Assembly (NCBI GenBank): GCA_024613925.1 | Contig: GCA_024613925.1_4713.1 | Direction: 5' to 3' (one strand) | Length of the DNA: 64,000 nucleotides | Source: a phage | In this document: one piece after another, positions 39,820 to 49,519 of the stretch | Layout: each line of letters begins with the position of its first letter | Numbering within the stretch: position 1 is the stretch's first letter | The notes under the pieces: model-generated | The model's database searches: none | Told to the model about the DNA's origin: nothing | What the model saw: the letters and a program-made list of their open reading frames with translations, nothing else | Made by a program: the position numbers and the translations under genes

Positions 39820-41619
39820 TCAATCGATTATGTCGTGATCGTTAATTTCTACAATTTCTTCATCGAATCGACCGACGTCTTTCTTCAAGCCTGCATTGGT
39901 TGCTGCAACGTCATTTGCAATTTGTGGGGTAATGATTAACCGACCGCGTTCGTCGATAGGTGCGTACATACTGAACTTCTGACGTCCGGTTGGTTCGGAG
40001 TGTGGAAGATTCAGATAGCTTGCACAGAACGGGATGGAACCACTAACCAAACGACTCTCGTCAGCCAATGCAGCACCGCCTGCGTTTTGGCTCTGGAGAA
40101 CAACATGCGTGCTCACTTTGAACAGCATGCAATCACCAGGTGACTGAATCGATGTTGCCACTTTTTCACGTTTGTCACGATTGCTCTGGATATTGAGAAT
40201 CGCTTCCGTTGCAACTTGATTTCGCAACGCCTTCTGTACATCGCGATTGGTCATCTCTTTACGGTTGTTCTGTCGTTTACCACGTTCCGTGGTTTTAAGA
40301 TGGAACCCCAGTTTAAAGATGCTCTTACGCACATCCTCCATGACATATTCCAACACCATCAATTCCTTACCGAACATCGTCGTGGTATCAACACGACTCA
40401 TTTCGATAGTGACATTATCAATCAGATACGCCATAAATTCGTAGAAGTCGTCGCAAGGAATATTTTCCTGTTTGAACTTCTTCTGTTGAATCTCGTCAAC
40501 GTAAAGATCGAGACTGTCGATGTGGTGGTTTACATCACGCAACAAACGCGCATCCGCATTGTTGTTATTAAAGATAATCAAACCGAGTAATGTACGCCAA
40601 TGGTCTGGCGCATTCGCGAACTCTTCAACCGGATAGTCTTCCGGAAAACGATCGTAATAACGGTCGATGAGATACAAGAATGCACCGACAAGGCCAAGAA
40701 CAATACGTTCCGTGCCTCCACGTCTTACAGCAATTTGAATATCAGGATGTTTGTAACGTACAGCGCTAGCGCTACGACTTTTACCGCTTTTGCTGATACT
40801 AAAGCCTTTAGGAATAACCCCCATGGTGCGATAGATTACCCATTGGTCACGCGGAAAATCACGTTCAGCAAGGTTCCGTCCGGTTACGGCTTCGACACCT
40901 GCAAAACGTCGGAAACACTCACCCACCCCGTACTTCGCAAAGAGATAGTGACCCAGTGTGGTTACGCTGGTGTGGTTGATGTTGTCGCCGTTCACTTTAC
41001 TTTGTTTGGTAAGATGATAGATTTGCGACCAGGGTAATGACAGGTAATGACGATAATCGATACCGGTCGGTGTATCATTGCTCAGGAACTGATACGGTGT
41101 ACGTTTAACCGTGATTTTGTCACGCGGAAGCATGATGAACGCCATGTCTTTCGTGTAACTGATTACAGGGTCAGCGAGCACCGCACTGAGAATGAAGTTC
41201 GCACCACGTAGACGCATTTTACCACCCTGACCTACTGCGGGCAATAGGAGAGGGTGTCGGATAATACAGTAGTCCTTTCCTGGTTCACGACGGTCACCTG
41301 ATTCCATCGCGCCGTACCAGCGGAATTCTAGCATCACCATAAACACATCGGAAGGCGCAAGGTCGAAGGTCAGCTTACCGCTATCCTTCCCTTTGGTTTT
41401 CTTTCCTCCGCTTAAGTAGTGGAACTGTTCGCGGGCCATACAGCGACGCAGGCCATGATACACCAGATCCTTAGGTAAACTATCTTTGCTGTTCCGCCAA
41501 AGACGATCAACATAGGACTCAACATCTTGCATCTTATCGACGACGATGTTGCGTGCTATCTTCTCGTTCATCTTCGGTGCAAGCTCAGCGACAGCTTTGC
41601 AGAATCTAGGATCCATCAC
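39820..41619 (-). CDS. hypothetical protein
   Basis: 599-aa ORF; no polymerase (NADFDGD-type) or other motif recognised. Confidence 0.5.
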   Translation of the reverse strand: MMDPRFCKAVAELAPKMNEKIARNIVVDKMQDVESYVDRLWRNSKDSLPKDLVYHGLRRCMAREQFHYLSGGKKTKGKDSGKLTFDLAPSDVFMVMLEFRWYGAMESGDRREPGKDYCIIRHPLLLPAVGQGGKMRLRGANFILSAVLADPVISYTKDMAFIMLPRDKITVKRTPYQFLSNDTPTGIDYRHYLSLPWSQIYHLTKQSKVNGDNINHTSVTTLGHYLFAKYGVGECFRRFAGVEAVTGRNLAERDFPRDQWVIYRTMGVIPKGFSISKSGKSRSASAVRYKHPDIQIAVRRGGTERIVLGLVGAFLYLIDRYYDRFPEDYPVEEFANAPDHWRTLLGLIIFNNNNADARLLRDVNHHIDSLDLYVDEIQQKKFKQENIPCDDFYEFMAYLIDNVTIEMSRVDTTTMFGKELMVLEYVMEDVRKSIFKLGFHLKTTERGKRQNNRKEMTNRDVQKALRNQVATEAILNIQSNRDKREKVATSIQSPGDCMLFKVSTHVVLQSQNAGGAALADESRLVSGSIPFCASYLNLPHSEPTGRQKFSMYAPIDERGRLIITPQIANDVAATNAGLKKDVGRFDEEIVEINDHDIID

Positions 41620-41655: not shown

Positions 41656-43098
41656 TTACTTTTTCGATGCCGCTTTCTCAAGAATCTTGAAAAAGGTCAT
41701 ACCTATACCGACAACGGCCGCAGTTATACTCGCAGCGGCTTTCCAAACATCGACGTTACGTTGACGTCGCGCTTCTTCCGCCTCACGTTGTCTTTTTGCC
41801 TCCTCATCACGTCGACGTATCTCAGCAGCAAACTCGTCGTGCTTACGTTTAGCTTCTTCGTCTCGACGACGAAGTTCAGCGACGAATTCTTCATGTTTGC
41901 GTTTAGCCTCGTCATCACGACGTTTTAAATCAGCTTGATAATCTTCGTGTATTTGTCTACGTAGATCATCTTGACGCTTCATTTCGGCTTGGTGTTGTTC
42001 CATCCTACGTTTTTGTTCGTCTTTAAGCTGATCGAGTTCGGCTTTATGTTGTTCATCGCGCAGCTTTGCGTCGGCGCGATGCGCCTCATGCATCTGTGCG
42101 ATAACTGCCTTGTGTTCATCCGCCATACGTCGCATTTCAGCCATCACCCCTTTAAGGGTTTCTTCTGATGCCTTACGTTCGTAGCTACGTTGGTCGAAAT
42201 CATTTTTGTAGGCTTCTTTTTGGATGGGGTCGCGCCAATGCAATGCCGATTCACGTGTCGGAAAAACATTGTACTTCCACATCTCTTTTTCCAAATCTTC
42301 GACCGGTACGAAGATGGAGTCATTATTCCCGAAGGTAACCAACATACCTGGCGCGCCTGCTCCATTCGTTGGTTTTATTTCGAACGCTTTCCCCAGCACG
42401 TTAACCCATAAGCTATACGGATTATGAAAGTCGGGTGGCGTCCAATGGATAGTGAGTTGCGTTCCGAGAATTCGGAAACCCTCTGTTTTTCCCGTCAAGC
42501 TCCGCGCGCACGTTGCGATGTAGGGGTGATCAATCCCTTTCGTAACGTGGTCTGCGCTTTTGTATTCTCCTTTAACTTTTACGATTGCCACGTTGATTTG
42601 CGCGACATAAGCGGGTTGATTAAAGTTCAACGTGTTGAGGTCAATTTGACATATTTCATCCAGCGTATCGTACCAGTCTTGCTGGTCTAATAGGCGCGGC
42701 ATTTTCTCGGTGTTAACAATACGACGGATATGCGGTTTCCTTATCGCGTAACCTGTGCCGTTTTTAACACGGAGTATATCCCGACGTCTACCCGCGTAGA
42801 CGAAGTTTCTGAATGCACCATTCGCATTAGATACGTCATGGCTGTCAACTATTACAGGACTACGAAATTTTGAACGTCGTACGATCCTGAATGTATTGCC
42901 GTCCTCAACCCTACCAGGAATGTACTGGAACATATTGTCGGAGGTGATCACCAACACGGTATGGCCAGATTCATTAATACATGCCCATCCTAATTCCAGG
43001 TCATATAACGGTTCAGCATAACCGTCAATGCGATAAGCGTGCGTACCATCCCACGGTTCGAACGCGGTATCACATATTGGCATGGAGGGCATCGTCAA
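41656..43098 (-). CDS. tail-anchored membrane protein with charged coiled-coil tandem repeats
   Basis: 480 aa; C-terminal hydrophobic helix AAASITAAVVGIGMTFFKIL; repeats RRDEEAKRKH(E/D)EF(V/A)AE(L/I)R; likely ATG start at about 43092 with GGAGG 6 nt upstream. Confidence 0.5.
   Translation of the reverse strand: MTMPSMPICDTAFEPWDGTHAYRIDGYAEPLYDLELGWACINESGHTVLVITSDNMFQYIPGRVEDGNTFRIVRRSKFRSPVIVDSHDVSNANGAFRNFVYAGRRRDILRVKNGTGYAIRKPHIRRIVNTEKMPRLLDQQDWYDTLDEICQIDLNTLNFNQPAYVAQINVAIVKVKGEYKSADHVTKGIDHPYIATCARSLTGKTEGFRILGTQLTIHWTPPDFHNPYSLWVNVLGKAFEIKPTNGAGAPGMLVTFGNNDSIFVPVEDLEKEMWKYNVFPTRESALHWRDPIQKEAYKNDFDQRSYERKASEETLKGVMAEMRRMADEHKAVIAQMHEAHRADAKLRDEQHKAELDQLKDEQKRRMEQHQAEMKRQDDLRRQIHEDYQADLKRRDDEAKRKHEEFVAELRRRDEEAKRKHDEFAAEIRRRDEEAKRQREAEEARRQRNVDVWKAAASITAAVVGIGMTFFKILEKAASKK
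41735..41945 (-). repeat. in-frame tandem DNA repeat (about 48 bp units) encoding the coiled-coil repeats
   Basis: recurring cgtttagc(t/c)tc.tc.tc.cgacg units read directly; boundaries approximate. Confidence 0.55.
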
Positions 43099-43428: not shown

Positions 43429-45651
43429 TCAGTTAGTCTGAACAGGCAGCTTGATGTTTTCAGTGTAGACCTTACGCAGGTTCACAACGTTAATCAGACC
43501 CAGCAGCGGGCAGTTGTTAACGAAGCGGCAGCGCGGCTGAACCATGGTTTCTTTAGAAACCTGACCGTTACGGGTAACCTGAGCAACAGATACCAGTTCC
43601 GGTACGTACAGGAACATACCGAAGGTCAGCGGATCCGGAGAACCCTGGATACCACGAGACAGGGTCACGAAGATCTTATCACGCAGCAGGACGTTCGGGT
43701 TATCTACAACCACGAAGTTGAAGCTTACACCAACGGTACGGAAATCACCATCGGTCTGCAGGAACTGCGGGATGTAGTTGTCAGTTGCTACTACGCAACG
43801 CGGTTTCTCATCAGCGTTGGAAGACAGCAGCTGCAGAGCTGGCTGATAACCAGACTCGGAGTACATGCGATATGCCATCTCACGAATCACGTTCATGATC
43901 GCAGCGGACACTTCAGCACGACGTTCTGCAGTGGTGGTACCCTGAACAGATTTCTCCAGGTCCAGATTGATTTCTTCGAACCACGGACGGATCAGGTAAC
44001 GACCGAAACCTTCGATCTGGATGTCGCCGAACTGACGGAAGCGAGAGGTCGCAACCGCTTTCAGTGCGTCTTTGTAGCTGAACAGTTTCTCAACCATCAG
44101 GTTGTCGAAACGTGCGTTAGCAGCTTGGATCAGAACGTCCAGGTCGGCAGCGTTTTCTTCCCAATCCAGCGGACGAGGAATGGAGAACGGAGCCAGCAGG
44201 CCGATTGCGTAACGTTCTTGCTTCATGTTGAAGTCAAGGTGCTTACCGCGTTCACGACGGTTGCTGTTGTTACGACGGATACGCAGTTCGTAACCAACCA
44301 GTTTGAAGCTCAGGTCTTCAGCCAGTTGTTTGAACTCTTCGCTCTTACGCGGTTGTTCGATGTTGTCCTGATCAACCAGGCGATACAGTTCAGCGTTAGC
44401 GCCGTTAACACGCAGACCGGCTTTCTCTACGTTGGAAGAACCGTAAACTTCGATTGCCAGCTGAGCAGCGGATTTCGAATCGATGATGTCCTGCAGCGCT
44501 TCAGCTCGTGCACCTTTAACGTCAACGGTGTGCTCATCAACGAAGATGGAGTGGGTGTCGAACGCCAGGGTCATTTTGCGGAAGTCGCCTTCCAGGGATT
44601 TCTGGAAACCGTTGGTGATCAGACCAGATACGTCGAACGGTACGTAAGAGGTTTTGCTGTGCTTGGTAGATTTGATTTCCACCAGGATTTTGGTCAGCGT
44701 GATCTGGGCGTCCAGCGCATCGGTGTTGTCGCTGTAACCGTTAGCCAGGATGCTATCGTCTTCAGCAATACCGATCATGTCGATCAGTTTATCAACAGCC
44801 AGGTAAGACGTTTTATAAGTTACGCCTTTAATTTCGATGTTGCGCGGAGCAACGATAGCTTTGTCAACGAAGTACTGCGCGTTGGCATCGTCAGCACGAT
44901 AGATCGGATGCAGATCGGTCACGTCGTTGGACAGAACGTCGTTGTACATGAACGCATCCAGCAGCGGACGACGTACCCAATCAGCCGGAGTACCGTCAGC
45001 GTTACGACGCAGGTGGTTGAACACCAGCGGACGACGGAAAGATACGTCGTAACCGATCTGGTTCGGAGCCAGAACGATGGTGTTATACAGTTCGTTACCC
45101 ATGCGGCTCAGACGAGAAGCCTTCACGTTGAACACAACGGAGTACGGCATCATGTCACGCAGTTCTTTCTGGTCGTAAGACAGCTGAACCAGTTCTTCAG
45201 ATTCGCAACCGCAGGAATCAGCAGCCATCATGACGAAGTTAGAGCTGTCAACTTCACGGCCAGACGGAGTGGTGCTGATGTTCATGGAACGTGCTTGTTT
45301 AGCGTATTCCACCGGGTTACCATGAGCCAGCATGATCAGTGCTGCTGCACGAGCCTGCTGTGCGTTCATGGTGAACAGCTGTTCTTCAATACGCTGCTTC
45401 TCTTCCGGAGTGGTGGTTTCGAAGCCCAGCATGGACAGAACCGGTTCTTCTGCTTTACGGATGTCGCTGCTGAAGCTCTTAACATCCATTTCGTTAACCA
45501 GTTTGTCCATGGATTTGAAATCAACCTTAGAAGCAGATTCCATAGACAGGAAGGTGTTCTCCAGACCTTTGTCTGCTGGTTTGCTACCATTAGCGGTCAG
45601 GAACTGGCGAGTGGCCGCGACCTGTTGGCTAAGAAGGGTTTTATCATTCAT
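43429..45651 (-). CDS. major virion structural protein (major capsid protein-like; tail sheath not excluded)
   Basis: 740 aa, a size typical of giant-phage major capsid proteins; the whole gene lacks TTA, CTA and TCA codons (hence the 766-codon antisense ORF), indicating strong expression bias; flanked by a strong terminator. Confidence 0.45.
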   Translation of the reverse strand: MNDKTLLSQQVAATRQFLTANGSKPADKGLENTFLSMESASKVDFKSMDKLVNEMDVKSFSSDIRKAEEPVLSMLGFETTTPEEKQRIEEQLFTMNAQQARAAALIMLAHGNPVEYAKQARSMNISTTPSGREVDSSNFVMMAADSCGCESEELVQLSYDQKELRDMMPYSVVFNVKASRLSRMGNELYNTIVLAPNQIGYDVSFRRPLVFNHLRRNADGTPADWVRRPLLDAFMYNDVLSNDVTDLHPIYRADDANAQYFVDKAIVAPRNIEIKGVTYKTSYLAVDKLIDMIGIAEDDSILANGYSDNTDALDAQITLTKILVEIKSTKHSKTSYVPFDVSGLITNGFQKSLEGDFRKMTLAFDTHSIFVDEHTVDVKGARAEALQDIIDSKSAAQLAIEVYGSSNVEKAGLRVNGANAELYRLVDQDNIEQPRKSEEFKQLAEDLSFKLVGYELRIRRNNSNRRERGKHLDFNMKQERYAIGLLAPFSIPRPLDWEENAADLDVLIQAANARFDNLMVEKLFSYKDALKAVATSRFRQFGDIQIEGFGRYLIRPWFEEINLDLEKSVQGTTTAERRAEVSAAIMNVIREMAYRMYSESGYQPALQLLSSNADEKPRCVVATDNYIPQFLQTDGDFRTVGVSFNFVVVDNPNVLLRDKIFVTLSRGIQGSPDPLTFGMFLYVPELVSVAQVTRNGQVSKETMVQPRCRFVNNCPLLGLINVVNLRKVYTENIKLPVQTN

Positions 45652-45800
45652 TGAAAGTATCCTTTACAGAATTAACTTATATAAGTCGGTCGATAGACCA
45701 TAGCGTACACGCGTGCATGCGCCACTATAGTATCAGTAAACACTTACCGTTATTGAGGTCGTGATACAACACTAAAAATGCCGCATAACTTTTCCCTACG

Positions 45801-46421
45801 TCACAAACGACGCAGGCGATAATGGATGGAACGATTGGTGCAATATGAACGGAACAGCGGCAATTGCGCAACTTCCGCAAGACTCATATTAATTCGCAGG
45901 TGTTCAATAACGGCGCTGTAGTTATCAGCAATACGATCGCTCAATAACTCTTCTGCCAATAAAGGAAGACAATCGACAACAATCGCGATCACATCCTCAT
46001 TAACATAACGCACCCGAACACTCAACGGACGTTTGTCTGGGCTGTAAGTTGGATCCGCCAAACGACGTTCAATATCACGTGGATAGCTCGTCAGTAAATG
46101 GTAATAACCATTGTCATAACGATTGATGTACTCACACAGCACATCAACATTCTTCTCTGGCGGCAAACCTGTTTCGTCATAGTGATACGCAAACATACCA
46201 CCAAGCAGGTTGTTAAGATGAACCGCAGGGTTCGCTTGTTCGTGTTCTTTCGTGATGAAGAAAGGCACGTTCTGGGCTGCGAAATAAAAACCTACATCAT
46301 TGGGCGATAGTATGCCGAAAAGACTTTTAGGGTCTAATAACACCTGTAAGTCATCACGCGCATTTCGAATAATCGCGTGTTCTACCCAATTCGGAACGAC
46401 GAGATATCGGAGTTCCTTCAT
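45801..46421 (-). CDS. hypothetical protein
   Basis: 206-aa ORF immediately upstream (in transcription order) of the major structural gene. Confidence 0.45.
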   Translation of the reverse strand: MKELRYLVVPNWVEHAIIRNARDDLQVLLDPKSLFGILSPNDVGFYFAAQNVPFFITKEHEQANPAVHLNNLLGGMFAYHYDETGLPPEKNVDVLCEYINRYDNGYYHLLTSYPRDIERRLADPTYSPDKRPLSVRVRYVNEDVIAIVVDCLPLLAEELLSDRIADNYSAVIEHLRINMSLAEVAQLPLFRSYCTNRSIHYRLRRL

Positions 46422-48071
46422 TATGATTACCTCTTTGCAAGTATCGAAAGGATTGAGTCGATGGACCCAAAACAGATAGCCATTAAGATTATTACGTTAC
46501 TGTTTCGTAATGCACAATTGAACCATCCCGATCCCAGTACGATCGAACATGTTAAATCCGTCTTAGATAAAGTCGAACCCCCGAAAAACCATCTCGCTAC
46601 GGACGTAGATAGAGAGGTTTTCAACAACCTGATGAATACCATTCATTGGATGTTGGAACAACCATTATCGGAACCTTTCGATAAACAACAGTTGTTACAA
46701 AGGATACGTTTAGATTGCCTTGAACAAAGCAACCTTTACGAGATTCTTGCCGACGGACTGTACGATATCGAAGACGACGCTCATATCAGTAAGGTCTGTT
46801 CACTCTATTACAACGAATTACGTAATCTGGTTACCCGCCGTCGTGTTTTCGAAACCTTTAGAAACACGTACATGGATATCAGTAACGGGCGACTTGGGGA
46901 TAAAGAATTTTTCGATGCGATGGCGAATTTGAAATTATCGCTAGACAGTATCGAAATGGATACCGAAAATCCCGAAGAGATGGCGTGTATGATTGACGGC
47001 TTTATCGCCGACAGCGAAGACGATATCGAGAAAGTTGAACGTATGTTCGTCAAAGCGATGGAACGTAACAGTCCTGAAGGTGGATTTGTAACCGGCTGGC
47101 AAGGCTTTAATAAAATGTTGGGGTCGGTCGGCGTTTTACGTCGCGGTACCTTAGGACTGATTGGTGCAATGCAGCACCGGAACAAGTCAGGTGTGTTGTT
47201 AAAACTGTTCACGCATCTGGCACTGTACAATAAACCCCATTTCTTTTTTCCGGAGCGAGCAAAGAAAGCATTACTGATTCATTTGTCGACAGAAAACGAA
47301 GTGGAAGAAAACACGCTTCAAATATACAAGAACATGCGAGAACAGGAAACAGGCGAATATGTCGATATTCGTAAGATTGACCCTCGCGAGGCATCACGTT
47401 ATGTGTTGAAGGTGTTCAATGATGCGGGTTTCTCTGTTTGTATGCGTCGTGTTGATGGGATGAGTTATAAACAACTCGCTAATCTCATCGACCATTTCGA
47501 ACGCATGGGTTATGAAGTCATGGCATTGTTCATTGACTATCTGAAAATGTTCTCATCGGAAGGGCTGGATAGAAATGGACCGACCGGCGCATGGCTCCAA
47601 GAACTCTTCAACAAAGTACGTAACCTCTGCAGCGTTAAACGTATTTTAGGTATGACCGTACACCAGCTGTCATCCGACGCGAAGATGCGTGCACGTGACG
47701 GTAACGATGAAGAGTTTGTTGACCAAGTCGCAGGTTTAAGTTACTGGGATGGTTGTAAAGGGATTGACCGTGAGATTGACCTTGAAGTGATTGTTGATAT
47801 CGTTAAGGAACCGGGCAAACGTCAAAGCTGGCAAGTCTTTGCATTAGGGAAAGACCGTCAACCGGATAACGGTTCAACGAAACCTGAAGACAAACATTTC
47901 GCGATGCCATTCCAAACCATCGGGATGCTTCCTGATGATTACGGTAAGAAAGCGGTATATTGCCGCAAGGTTGGCGGACAACCTGTCTCCGAGGGAGGTA
48001 AAGGTCCGTGGAACAAGTTCGATGAAAACGCAGCACCGAGTAATGAATTACAATTTGATTTAGAATTTTAA
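46377..48071 (+). CDS. DnaB-family helicase-like protein with a variant P-loop
   Basis: VTGWQGFNKMLGSVG...LGLIGAMQHRNKSGVL aligns to the DnaB H1 region (VTG...LIIVAARPSMGKT) but has N where the glycine before the lysine is expected; VMALFIDYLKMF matches the DnaB Walker B box LIVIDYLQLM; likely true start MDPKQIAIKI (about 46453). Confidence 0.45.
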   Translation: MFYPIRNDEISEFLHYDYLFASIERIESMDPKQIAIKIITLLFRNAQLNHPDPSTIEHVKSVLDKVEPPKNHLATDVDREVFNNLMNTIHWMLEQPLSEPFDKQQLLQRIRLDCLEQSNLYEILADGLYDIEDDAHISKVCSLYYNELRNLVTRRRVFETFRNTYMDISNGRLGDKEFFDAMANLKLSLDSIEMDTENPEEMACMIDGFIADSEDDIEKVERMFVKAMERNSPEGGFVTGWQGFNKMLGSVGVLRRGTLGLIGAMQHRNKSGVLLKLFTHLALYNKPHFFFPERAKKALLIHLSTENEVEENTLQIYKNMREQETGEYVDIRKIDPREASRYVLKVFNDAGFSVCMRRVDGMSYKQLANLIDHFERMGYEVMALFIDYLKMFSSEGLDRNGPTGAWLQELFNKVRNLCSVKRILGMTVHQLSSDAKMRARDGNDEEFVDQVAGLSYWDGCKGIDREIDLEVIVDIVKEPGKRQSWQVFALGKDRQPDNGSTKPEDKHFAMPFQTIGMLPDDYGKKAVYCRKVGGQPVSEGGKGPWNKFDENAAPSNELQFDLEF

Positions 48072-48096
48072 ACGCAAAAAAAAAGATTGTACGGTT

Positions 48097-48128
48097 CCCT
48101 CCTCCAACCCGTAAGGGAAGGAGGAGGG
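48097..48128. terminator. CCTCC/GGAGG-arm hairpin between convergent genes (probably bidirectional terminator)
   Basis: ccctcctcc-aacccgtaagggaa-ggaggaggg with A9 tract upstream. Confidence 0.6.
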
Positions 48129-48144
48129 GTTATGACCGCTTTGA

Positions 48145-48471
48145 TTAACTTATTGTCATGAATTCATTAGGTGAAAATTTCCAGCCGTTCTCAGTGAGAA
48201 GCGTGTTGAGTTTCGCCGCAACGATAAGCCATGCGTGCATGGCTGTTACATCGTATTGGCGATTCACTCGACGTTGGTTTTCGATATTGATTTGCTCCTG
48301 TTCAGTGATGTTTGGATAAAGTGCGATAGCGCTAGGTTTACCCAGCGCGCTAGTCATCACCGCCGTACATTCACTGATAATGTTGTTTAAGTGGTAGTTA
48401 TACACCGTTCCACGCATGACGCGATGACGGCATTCGATAATAGCGTCGTAAATGATTTCTCGAGTAATCAT
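48145..48471 (-). CDS. hypothetical protein
   Basis: 108-aa ORF. Confidence 0.4.
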   Translation of the reverse strand: MITREIIYDAIIECRHRVMRGTVYNYHLNNIISECTAVMTSALGKPSAIALYPNITEQEQINIENQRRVNRQYDVTAMHAWLIVAAKLNTLLTENGWKFSPNEFMTIS

Positions 48472-48477
48472 GATAAT

Positions 48478-48879
48478 TTAAAACATACGGTCGTTTTTAG
48501 CACGGGCGTTCATTACCAGATCGTAGATGCCTGCGGTTCGTAAGCACTCTTCGTAGTAACGATGTGCGCCTTCATCAGCCATCCATGATAACCCTCGGCT
48601 ATCCGCAACAATAACCAGTTTATTATTGTTGAACGCACACACCACACGGTAGGTCGCGTTGTTATTCGGATCGCGAGTGATAAGTTCGTAGACGCCGTTA
48701 ACAGGTTTACTGAATTCACCATTTAACGGAACGAGTTCGGTAGTACCTTCAGCAAACGTTACGTTGATCGGTGATGGATCTTTAGCGATAACAGTATATT
48801 CCACATTGTGTTCTTTACTGGTCATAATACCGAAGTAAGAACTCACAGGGGAACGTGGTACACTAAGAATATTAAACAT
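48478..48879 (-). CDS. hypothetical protein
   Basis: 133-aa ORF. Confidence 0.4.
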   Translation of the reverse strand: MFNILSVPRSPVSSYFGIMTSKEHNVEYTVIAKDPSPINVTFAEGTTELVPLNGEFSKPVNGVYELITRDPNNNATYRVVCAFNNNKLVIVADSRGLSWMADEGAHRYYEECLRTAGIYDLVMNARAKNDRMF

Positions 48880-48949: not shown

Positions 48950-49519
48950 TTAGACGATGAGTGACCAGGTAGTAAGCACCCCGCTCGCGAATTCGAGCTT
49001 AAGACGTTTACCGATAAGTTGTTGCTGGATCATCTTCTCGGTGATACGTCGATCGTGCTGAACCGCTTTATCAAACGCTTCTTTCGCTTCAGCTTGGTAG
49101 AAGTTCGTTTCTTCGTTTTCGTCGATCTCTTCGAGAGCATCGTCGTCGATGTCAGCAAGTTTCACTCGACCGTTTTCATCAGGTTGTTCTGCAGGTTCAT
49201 TGTCATAAGGCGTGTCTTTTGTTGGTGCGACACGATGTTGCAACTCGACCTGCGTTAACATGATCTCCATCTCACCATCGATAGGAATGATTTCATCGAC
49301 GCTGCCGTTTTCGGTCAACTCCCGACTTTCCAGTAATGTCGTCGTAACAGAGAACACCTCTTCAACAGGAACCTCATCATCGTCGATAGTGTTAACCGTA
49401 TTGCTGGTAACTTCAGCAACGACCATCAAATCAAATGCGTGAGGGTCACCTGGCATTTTGATTCCTGGAAGTTTGTTGAGGTACCAAGGATCAAGAATCA
49501 TGATTTCTGGATTAAACAT
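48950..49519 (-). CDS. strongly acidic hypothetical protein
   Basis: 189 aa with a large excess of D/E (for example IDDDEVPVEEVF and ADIDDDALEEIDENEETNFY). Confidence 0.45.
   Translation of the reverse strand: MFNPEIMILDPWYLNKLPGIKMPGDPHAFDLMVVAEVTSNTVNTIDDDEVPVEEVFSVTTTLLESRELTENGSVDEIIPIDGEMEIMLTQVELQHRVAPTKDTPYDNEPAEQPDENGRVKLADIDDDALEEIDENEETNFYQAEAKEAFDKAVQHDRRITEKMIQQQLIGKRLKLEFASGVLTTWSLIV

Follow-up and report, generated by a model that had tools for sequence, protein, structure and literature searches.

A divergent DnaB-like helicase gene with a glycine-less P-loop in a close relative of the nucleus-forming jumbo phage Goslar

Background

Iyer et al. identified in 2021, as a hallmark of the phiKZ-like group-1 jumbo phages, a divergent DnaB whose Walker motif is modified, and it was regarded as probably active since its Mg2+-binding site is intact (PMC7824862). 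According to Prichard et al. (Cell Rep 2023) the replicative helicase is a conserved phylogenetic marker of the chimallin-encoding phages; the family is reported to belong to the core genes of the nucleus-forming phages, and the orthologue of phage RAY, gp315, localises inside the phage nucleus (PMC10299810). In the October 2026 preprint on the split polymerase of phiKZ the helicase is simply annotated as "DnaB-like replicative helicase" within the replication set, and neither a primase nor a clamp is known (PMC13648687). Here we describe a helicase gene of this family, a complete coding sequence of 536 codons plus stop located at 46461..48071 (+) of a 64,000-nucleotide stretch of phage DNA (GenBank assembly GCA_024613925.1, contig GCA_024613925.1_4713.1), which is referred to below as the window. 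A first-pass annotation, made by a model from the letters alone, had described its product as a DnaB-like helicase with a non-canonical P-loop.

The closest described proteins are those of Pfam family PF20307 ("divDNAB, Divergent DnaB-like ATPase"), such as Goslar gp043, RAY gp315, the 201phi2-1 protein and PhiPA3 gp134. They share with the protein of the window the domain order, a deviant Walker A motif and invariant catalytic residues, and the genes share a genomic setting, the major capsid protein block of the chimallivirus. The Goslar clade, to which our gene belongs, differs from the other members in having asparagine in place of the usual phenylalanine or tyrosine before the P-loop lysine, a short insertion at about residues 165-175, a longer C-terminal tail, and LGKDRQ rather than RGKHR around the arginine finger. 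Identity to bacterial DnaB and T4 gp41 is only about 12-16%; where DnaB has ARPSMGKT, the PF20307 protein reads AMQHRNKS and lacks the glycine before the lysine, and, unlike for DnaB and gp41, no DnaG-type primase partner or loader is known in chimalliviruses. T7 gp4 and mitochondrial Twinkle differ in another way, as the PF20307 protein has no fused primase domain and its N-terminal domain is of the DnaB type; moreover, the Walker A motif of T7 gp4 (GSGMGKS) is canonical.

Family assignment and relation to Goslar

It is highly probable that the product of this gene is the replicative helicase of a Goslar-like, nucleus-forming jumbo phage, an enzyme of the DnaB type (superfamily 4 (SF4), RecA fold) and a member of PF20307. 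At the DNA level the window, and with it the gene, is 98.1% identical to Escherichia phage vB_EcoM_Goslar (NC_048170), and the protein is 99.3% identical in amino acids to Goslar gp043, which is annotated as "DnaB-like replicative helicase". Comparison of the two genes shows 32 differences in 1611 nucleotides, 24 of these at third codon positions, and since the result is just four amino acid changes (N55S, V124I, R134K and A175S, all in the N-terminal domain and none in the ATPase domain) the gene is under purifying selection. With a genome of 237,307 bp, Goslar is one of the nucleus-forming jumbo phages that encode chimallin (chimalliviruses), and it carries genes for the nuclear shell protein, the PhuZ tubulin, pieces of a multisubunit RNA polymerase and pieces of a split B-family polymerase (PolB). 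By this near-identity the PF20307 protein of the window is encoded in the genome of a phiKZ-like, chimallin-encoding jumbo phage.

The match to PF20307 (E=1.8e-120) spans profile positions 3-355 of 356 and, at 402.3 bits against a cut-off of 26, is far beyond chance. PHROG 3213, "DnaB-like replicative helicase", covers residues 1-516 (E=1.8e-122), and the canonical-DnaB PHROG 19 gives a weaker match (E=6e-11), while NCBIfam holds no model for the protein. A single-sequence phmmer search of the PDB sequences found nothing relevant, so that a family profile was needed; built from 24 members, this profile matched Aquifex DnaB (4nmn, E=1.5e-5) and Geobacillus DnaB. We also aligned 161 full-length sequences, which comprise the query, the full-length members of a representative set at 50% identity and closer homologues. 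When this family alignment was compared with E. coli DnaB by hhalign, a probability of 94% (E=2e-8) was obtained and every motif could be mapped.

The family is large. When 1.84 billion cluster representatives were searched exhaustively with phmmer, 697 matched at E<=1e-3 and 545 met the stricter limit of E<=1e-10. By tblastn, 289 of 50,697 phage records contained a homologue, in many cases one already annotated as a DnaB-like helicase. Among the matches listed, the phages have genomes of 197-317 kb and belong to Pseudomonas, Erwinia, Salmonella, Vibrio, Serratia, Aeromonas, Klebsiella, Ralstonia and Bacillus.

In Pseudomonas phage PhiPA3 (NC_028999.1, around 118348-119502) the homologue matches in two separate places, the best of which covers 73% of the query. 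This suggests that the PhiPA3 gene is interrupted, for instance by an intron, an intein or a homing-endonuclease insertion.

Predicted structure

A monomer model was built with AlphaFold2 from a 24-sequence alignment, with a mean predicted local distance difference test (pLDDT) score of 80.6. In this model an all-helical N-terminal domain (46461..46961 (+)), which resembles the DnaB collar, consists of a globular part (residues 1-99) and a long hairpin (helices 106-142 and 147-167). It is followed by a helix at residues 186-203 (47016..47069 (+)) lying between the two domains and by an alpha/beta RecA-fold ATPase domain at about residues 208-485 (47082..47915 (+)). All of the 50 best Foldseek matches in the PDB were chains of DnaB, DnaB-like helicases or T4 gp41, with E down to 1e-15, and because about 500 columns are aligned both domains are covered. 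As these matches are full-length, the helix at 186-203 is probably the equivalent of the DnaB linker helix.

The C-terminal tail, residues 494-536 (47940..48068 (+)), is predicted to be disordered, with pLDDT below 50 at residues 516-536, and runs from a basic patch through a Gly-rich linker to an acidic/aromatic end (NELQFDLEF). This style of tail is conserved in the family: its Gly-rich linker has 13% glycine compared with 6% overall, and the last 12 residues include an aromatic residue in 154 of 161 sequences and are net acidic in 150. Similar tails are the acidic one of T7 gp4, which ends in Phe, and the partner-docking ones of single-stranded-DNA-binding proteins, and on this likeness the tail may serve as a docking element for the polymerase or another partner.

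Catalytic motifs

The motifs of the ATPase domain could be placed on those of E. coli DnaB. The H1a motif LSTENE (47283..47300 (+)), with the catalytic Glu278, aligns by hhalign to FSLEM, and this glutamate is present in 161/161 sequences. The first-pass annotation had named FIDYLKMF as the Walker B box and HQLSSDAK as an H3-like motif of a DnaB-like RecA-fold helicase, and alignment to E. coli DnaB bore out both. FIDYLKMF (Walker B/H2, residues 357-364, 47529..47552 (+)) aligns to MIDYLQLM of E. coli DnaB by hhalign and to VDYLQLL of Aquifex DnaB by the family profile, with Asp359 and Tyr360 each kept in 161/161. HQLSSDAK (H3, residues 401-408, 47661..47684 (+)) aligns to SQLNR, and Gln402, at the gamma-phosphate sensor position, is again found in all 161. 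H4 is IDREIDLE (47763..47786 (+)), which hhalign places on IEQDADLI of DnaB, with Asp440 in 158/161. Finally, GKDRQ (47847..47861 (+)) aligns to GKQRNG and contributes Lys464 (158/161) and the arginine-finger residue Arg466 (161/161).

The H1a glutamate, Walker B aspartate, H3 glutamine, H4 and arginine finger are therefore conserved in 158-161 of 161 sequences, and the Walker A residues Lys242 and Ser/Thr243 in every one. These catalytic residues are kept by representatives that are only about 25-35% identical to the query. Such conservation, read from the alignment, is that expected of an active NTPase and unlike that of a degenerate paralog.

The P-loop

The loop itself is AMQHRNKSG (residues 236-244, 47166..47192 (+)), in which Asn241 (codon AAC, 47181-47183) occupies the canonical glycine position directly before Lys242, and Lys242 and Ser243 are kept. 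Three independent alignments to DnaB agree on this assignment, which the first-pass annotation had proposed: the family profile aligns ALqhnfKsG with ARPGMGKTA of Aquifex DnaB 4nmn, hhalign aligns IGAMQHRNKSG with VAARPSMGKTT of E. coli DnaB, and the family multiple alignments likewise pair Asn241 with the glycine of Walker A and Lys242 with its lysine. No canonical G-K-[ST] was found elsewhere in the 536 residues, either by regular expression or by direct reading, and the assignment stands. The protein does not carry the canonical Walker A (H1) pattern of DnaB and SF4, [AG]xxxxGK[ST], and instead has the form typical of its family, A-[LM]-Q-H-x-[FYWN]-K-[ST]-G, with no glycine before the lysine.

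Asparagine had been presented as a peculiarity of this one protein, which it is not. The residue before the lysine is tyrosine in 63 of the 161 sequences, phenylalanine in 61, asparagine in 20, tryptophan in 7, glycine in 6, histidine in 2, and cysteine and aspartate in 1 each; it is thus other than glycine in 155 and aromatic (Y/F/W) in 131, asparagine being a 12% minority state. The consensus loop of the family is A-L-Q-H-N-[FY]-K-[ST]-G. Sequences with asparagine or glycine are scattered and, except for four sequences of the Goslar clade, their nearest neighbours almost always have phenylalanine or tyrosine, from which we conclude that this position has switched state repeatedly. In the alignment, then, the missing glycine characterises the family as a whole and is no defect of this helicase, and asparagine is the state of the Goslar clade. 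The position before the lysine of a P-loop is usually described as left-handed (positive phi), and asparagine is the non-glycine residue that tolerates this conformation best, so Asn241 would be a conservative variant.

The gene and its odd P-loop were already known, since the gene is annotated in Goslar and has its own Pfam family and the Walker motif was pointed out in 2021; being common to the whole family, with all other catalytic residues intact, the deviation is an ordinary one. The text of Iyer et al. names "Walker B" as the modified motif (PMC7824862). This is probably a slip, because in our alignments Walker B is intact and it is Walker A that is modified.

Search for a second helicase

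The presence of a second, canonical helicase was checked by combining the family hidden Markov model (HMM), phmmer with E. coli DnaB, a Walker A regular expression and the RefSeq annotation, and none was found in the Goslar genome. The family HMM matched exactly one of all its six-frame open reading frames (ORFs), and the PF20307 helicase is the only DnaB-family gene in that genome. No matches were obtained with E. coli DnaB in the six-frame ORFs of Goslar and of the window, a limited test for a second helicase because the PF20307 helicase gene itself was missed. Among ORFs of at least 100 amino acids the pattern [AG]xxxxGK[ST] was met in SbcC, thymidylate kinase, the superfamily 2 (SF2) helicase gp164, the equivalent of gp040 (see below) and chance matches; the latter, in a ligase, a tail fibre and unannotated frames, were set aside. 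The only other helicases annotated in Goslar are the SNF2/DEAD protein gp160 and the SF2 helicase gp164.

Function

Judged on its motifs and their conservation, the protein is most likely the active replicative helicase of the phage. By homology to DnaB, gp41 and gp4 it would assemble into a ring hexamer through the helical N-terminal collar and the linker helix. Nucleoside triphosphate (NTP) would be bound at the subunit interfaces by Lys242 and Ser243 of Walker A, Glu278 as catalytic base, Asp359 of Walker B and Gln402 as sensor, with Lys464 and the arginine finger Arg466 acting on it in trans. The glycine-less P-loop probably still offers its backbone amides, together with Lys242 and Ser243, to the phosphates. 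Within the phage nucleus the ring would then translocate on single-stranded DNA and open the replication fork in front of the split B-family DNA polymerase.

Several points weigh against this assignment. The first-pass annotation had pointed to profile models of the DnaB C-terminal domain as a check: divDNAB matched as given above, but the canonical Pfam DnaB_C (PF03796) stays below its threshold for this protein, unlike for bacterial DnaB, and is unreported even at E<=10, although a precomputed PF03796 match is present on a few homologues. E. coli DnaB used as a phmmer query also misses the protein. The protein lacks the P-loop glycine, to which an important part in phosphate binding is usually ascribed. 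The finding of no second helicase was made on the near-identical Goslar genome, the phage itself being seen across the 64-kb window. Neither a primase nor a helicase loader is known in chimalliviruses, which leaves the replisome context incomplete (PMC13648687). Finally, a literature search (divDNAB, Goslar gp043, chimallivirus helicase Walker A) found no dedicated study and no biochemical or structural study of any PF20307-family helicase, and for this reason the ATPase and helicase activities are ones that we infer.

It is possible, though we put it forward tentatively, that the enzyme, while active as a helicase, handles nucleotides in an altered way, its glycine-less loop modifying the phosphate geometry and leading to an NTP or dNTP preference, affinity or hydrolysis rate different from that of DnaB. 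This would be a refinement of the replicative helicase assignment and not another identity. It agrees with the near-absence of the glycine from the family and with the conservation of new loop residues, His239 being found in 135/161 sequences and asparagine at position 240 in 94/161; helix alpha1 begins at residue 239 in the AlphaFold2 model as assigned by DSSP, three residues before the lysine, and the modified Walker motif was noted by Iyer et al. (PMC7824862). On the other hand, the position before the lysine is variable (Y/F/W/N/G/H/C/D) and has switched repeatedly, which argues against a specific role for its side chain, and the residues that do the chemistry are all canonical. A precedent exists in T7 gp4, also an SF4 helicase, which prefers dTTP. 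A stronger version, which we think rather unlikely, is that the loop, conserved without its glycine in hundreds of chimallivirus helicases, represents a truly different mode of nucleotide binding, with a changed NTP/dNTP preference or a slower, regulated hydrolysis suiting the phage nucleus, and that the acidic/aromatic tail docks the split DNA polymerase in a replisome with no known primase or loader.

There is very little to recommend the idea that the protein is a RecA-fold motor with a role away from the fork, for example in RadA/Sms-like branch migration or recombination, the fork being unwound by an SF2 helicase or a host enzyme. In structure and sequence it comes closest to DnaB, gp41, Twinkle and gp4 and not to RadA, and it has the DnaB-type helical N-terminal domain, hairpin and linker helix whereas the zinc finger and Lon-like domain of RadA are absent. 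Host proteins, moreover, are largely excluded from the phage nucleus, where the phage DNA replicates. The suggestion of the first-pass annotation that this might be a structural, non-hydrolysing paralog, a pseudo-ATPase serving only as a regulatory element, replisome scaffold or DNA binder, found no support and is the least credible of all, given that the Walker A lysine and Ser/Thr, the glutamate, the Walker B aspartate, the glutamine and the arginine finger are 100% conserved over the 161 sequences when pseudo-enzymes normally lose such residues, that Goslar lacks a further DnaB-like gene to which it could be paralogous, that it belongs to the vertically inherited core of the entire phage family (PMC10299810), and that the gene is under purifying selection.

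The remaining value of this observation is modest and concerns the family rather than the locus. The chimallivirus replisome is only now being resolved (split polymerase and Rhc, in the preprint of October 2026), and a family of P-loop NTPases that has lost the glycine before the lysine and kept its catalytic residues is a test case for the role of this glycine.

Reading frame and start codon

The helicase gene lies in a single long ORF, 46377..48071 (+), where the only possible in-frame starts are GTG at 46377 and ATG at 46461. The ATG, which begins MDPKQIAIKI and had been favoured from the start, is the real one: a Shine-Dalgarno-like GAAAGGA (46446..46452 (+)) stands 8 nt 5' of it and is the same in Goslar on direct reading of the sequences, the GTG would produce a 45-nt overlap with the divergent gene 45801..46421, the homologues in the family alignment all start with M-D/N-x-K/R-L-L at the aligned position, and the RefSeq annotation of Goslar uses the equivalent start. 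The intergenic gap to the divergent neighbour is then just 39 bp, so either the promoters are embedded in coding sequence or overlap it, or transcription comes from further upstream.

Neighbouring genes and intergenic elements

The four small genes that flank the helicase, 45801-46421 (-), 48145-48471 (-), 48478-48879 (-) and 48950-49519 (-), have no Pfam or PHROG match. Between the helicase gene and the convergent gene 48145..48471 (-) sits a strong GC-rich hairpin, CCCUCCUCC...GGAGGAGGG, at 48092..48138 (folding free energy -30 kcal/mol, z about -4 on both strands). Since a run of nine U follows on the minus strand, 7 nt past the stem, this hairpin is probably a terminator. A scan for sigma-70 promoters and terminators over 45600-48300 gave fewer hits than shuffled sequences and missed this hairpin.

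The equivalent of Goslar gp040 (41656-43098 (-), 480 amino acids) has the polymerase-like gene on one side and the major capsid gene on the other, and only close homologues of it (at least 83% identical) were found. Its Walker-A-like ARSLTGKT was considered as the mark of a second P-loop protein and rejected as a chance match: the threonine is proline (GKP) in most of the 85-92% identical homologues, there is no Pfam match and the protein is a coiled-coil. A long charged repeat region, RRRDEEAKRKHEEF..., is followed by a C-terminal hydrophobic helix, AAASITAAVVGIGMTFFKIL, and from its sequence the product looks like a tail-anchored coiled-coil protein of unknown function.

The polymerase-like gene is the ORF at 39820-41619 (-), located about 5 kb upstream of the helicase and on the opposite strand, which matches PHROG 2943 "polymerase" (E=7e-120) and no Pfam family. 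As its Goslar counterpart, gp039, is annotated as "polymerase", this ORF may be a piece of the split B-family DNA polymerase of chimalliviruses (PMC13648687).

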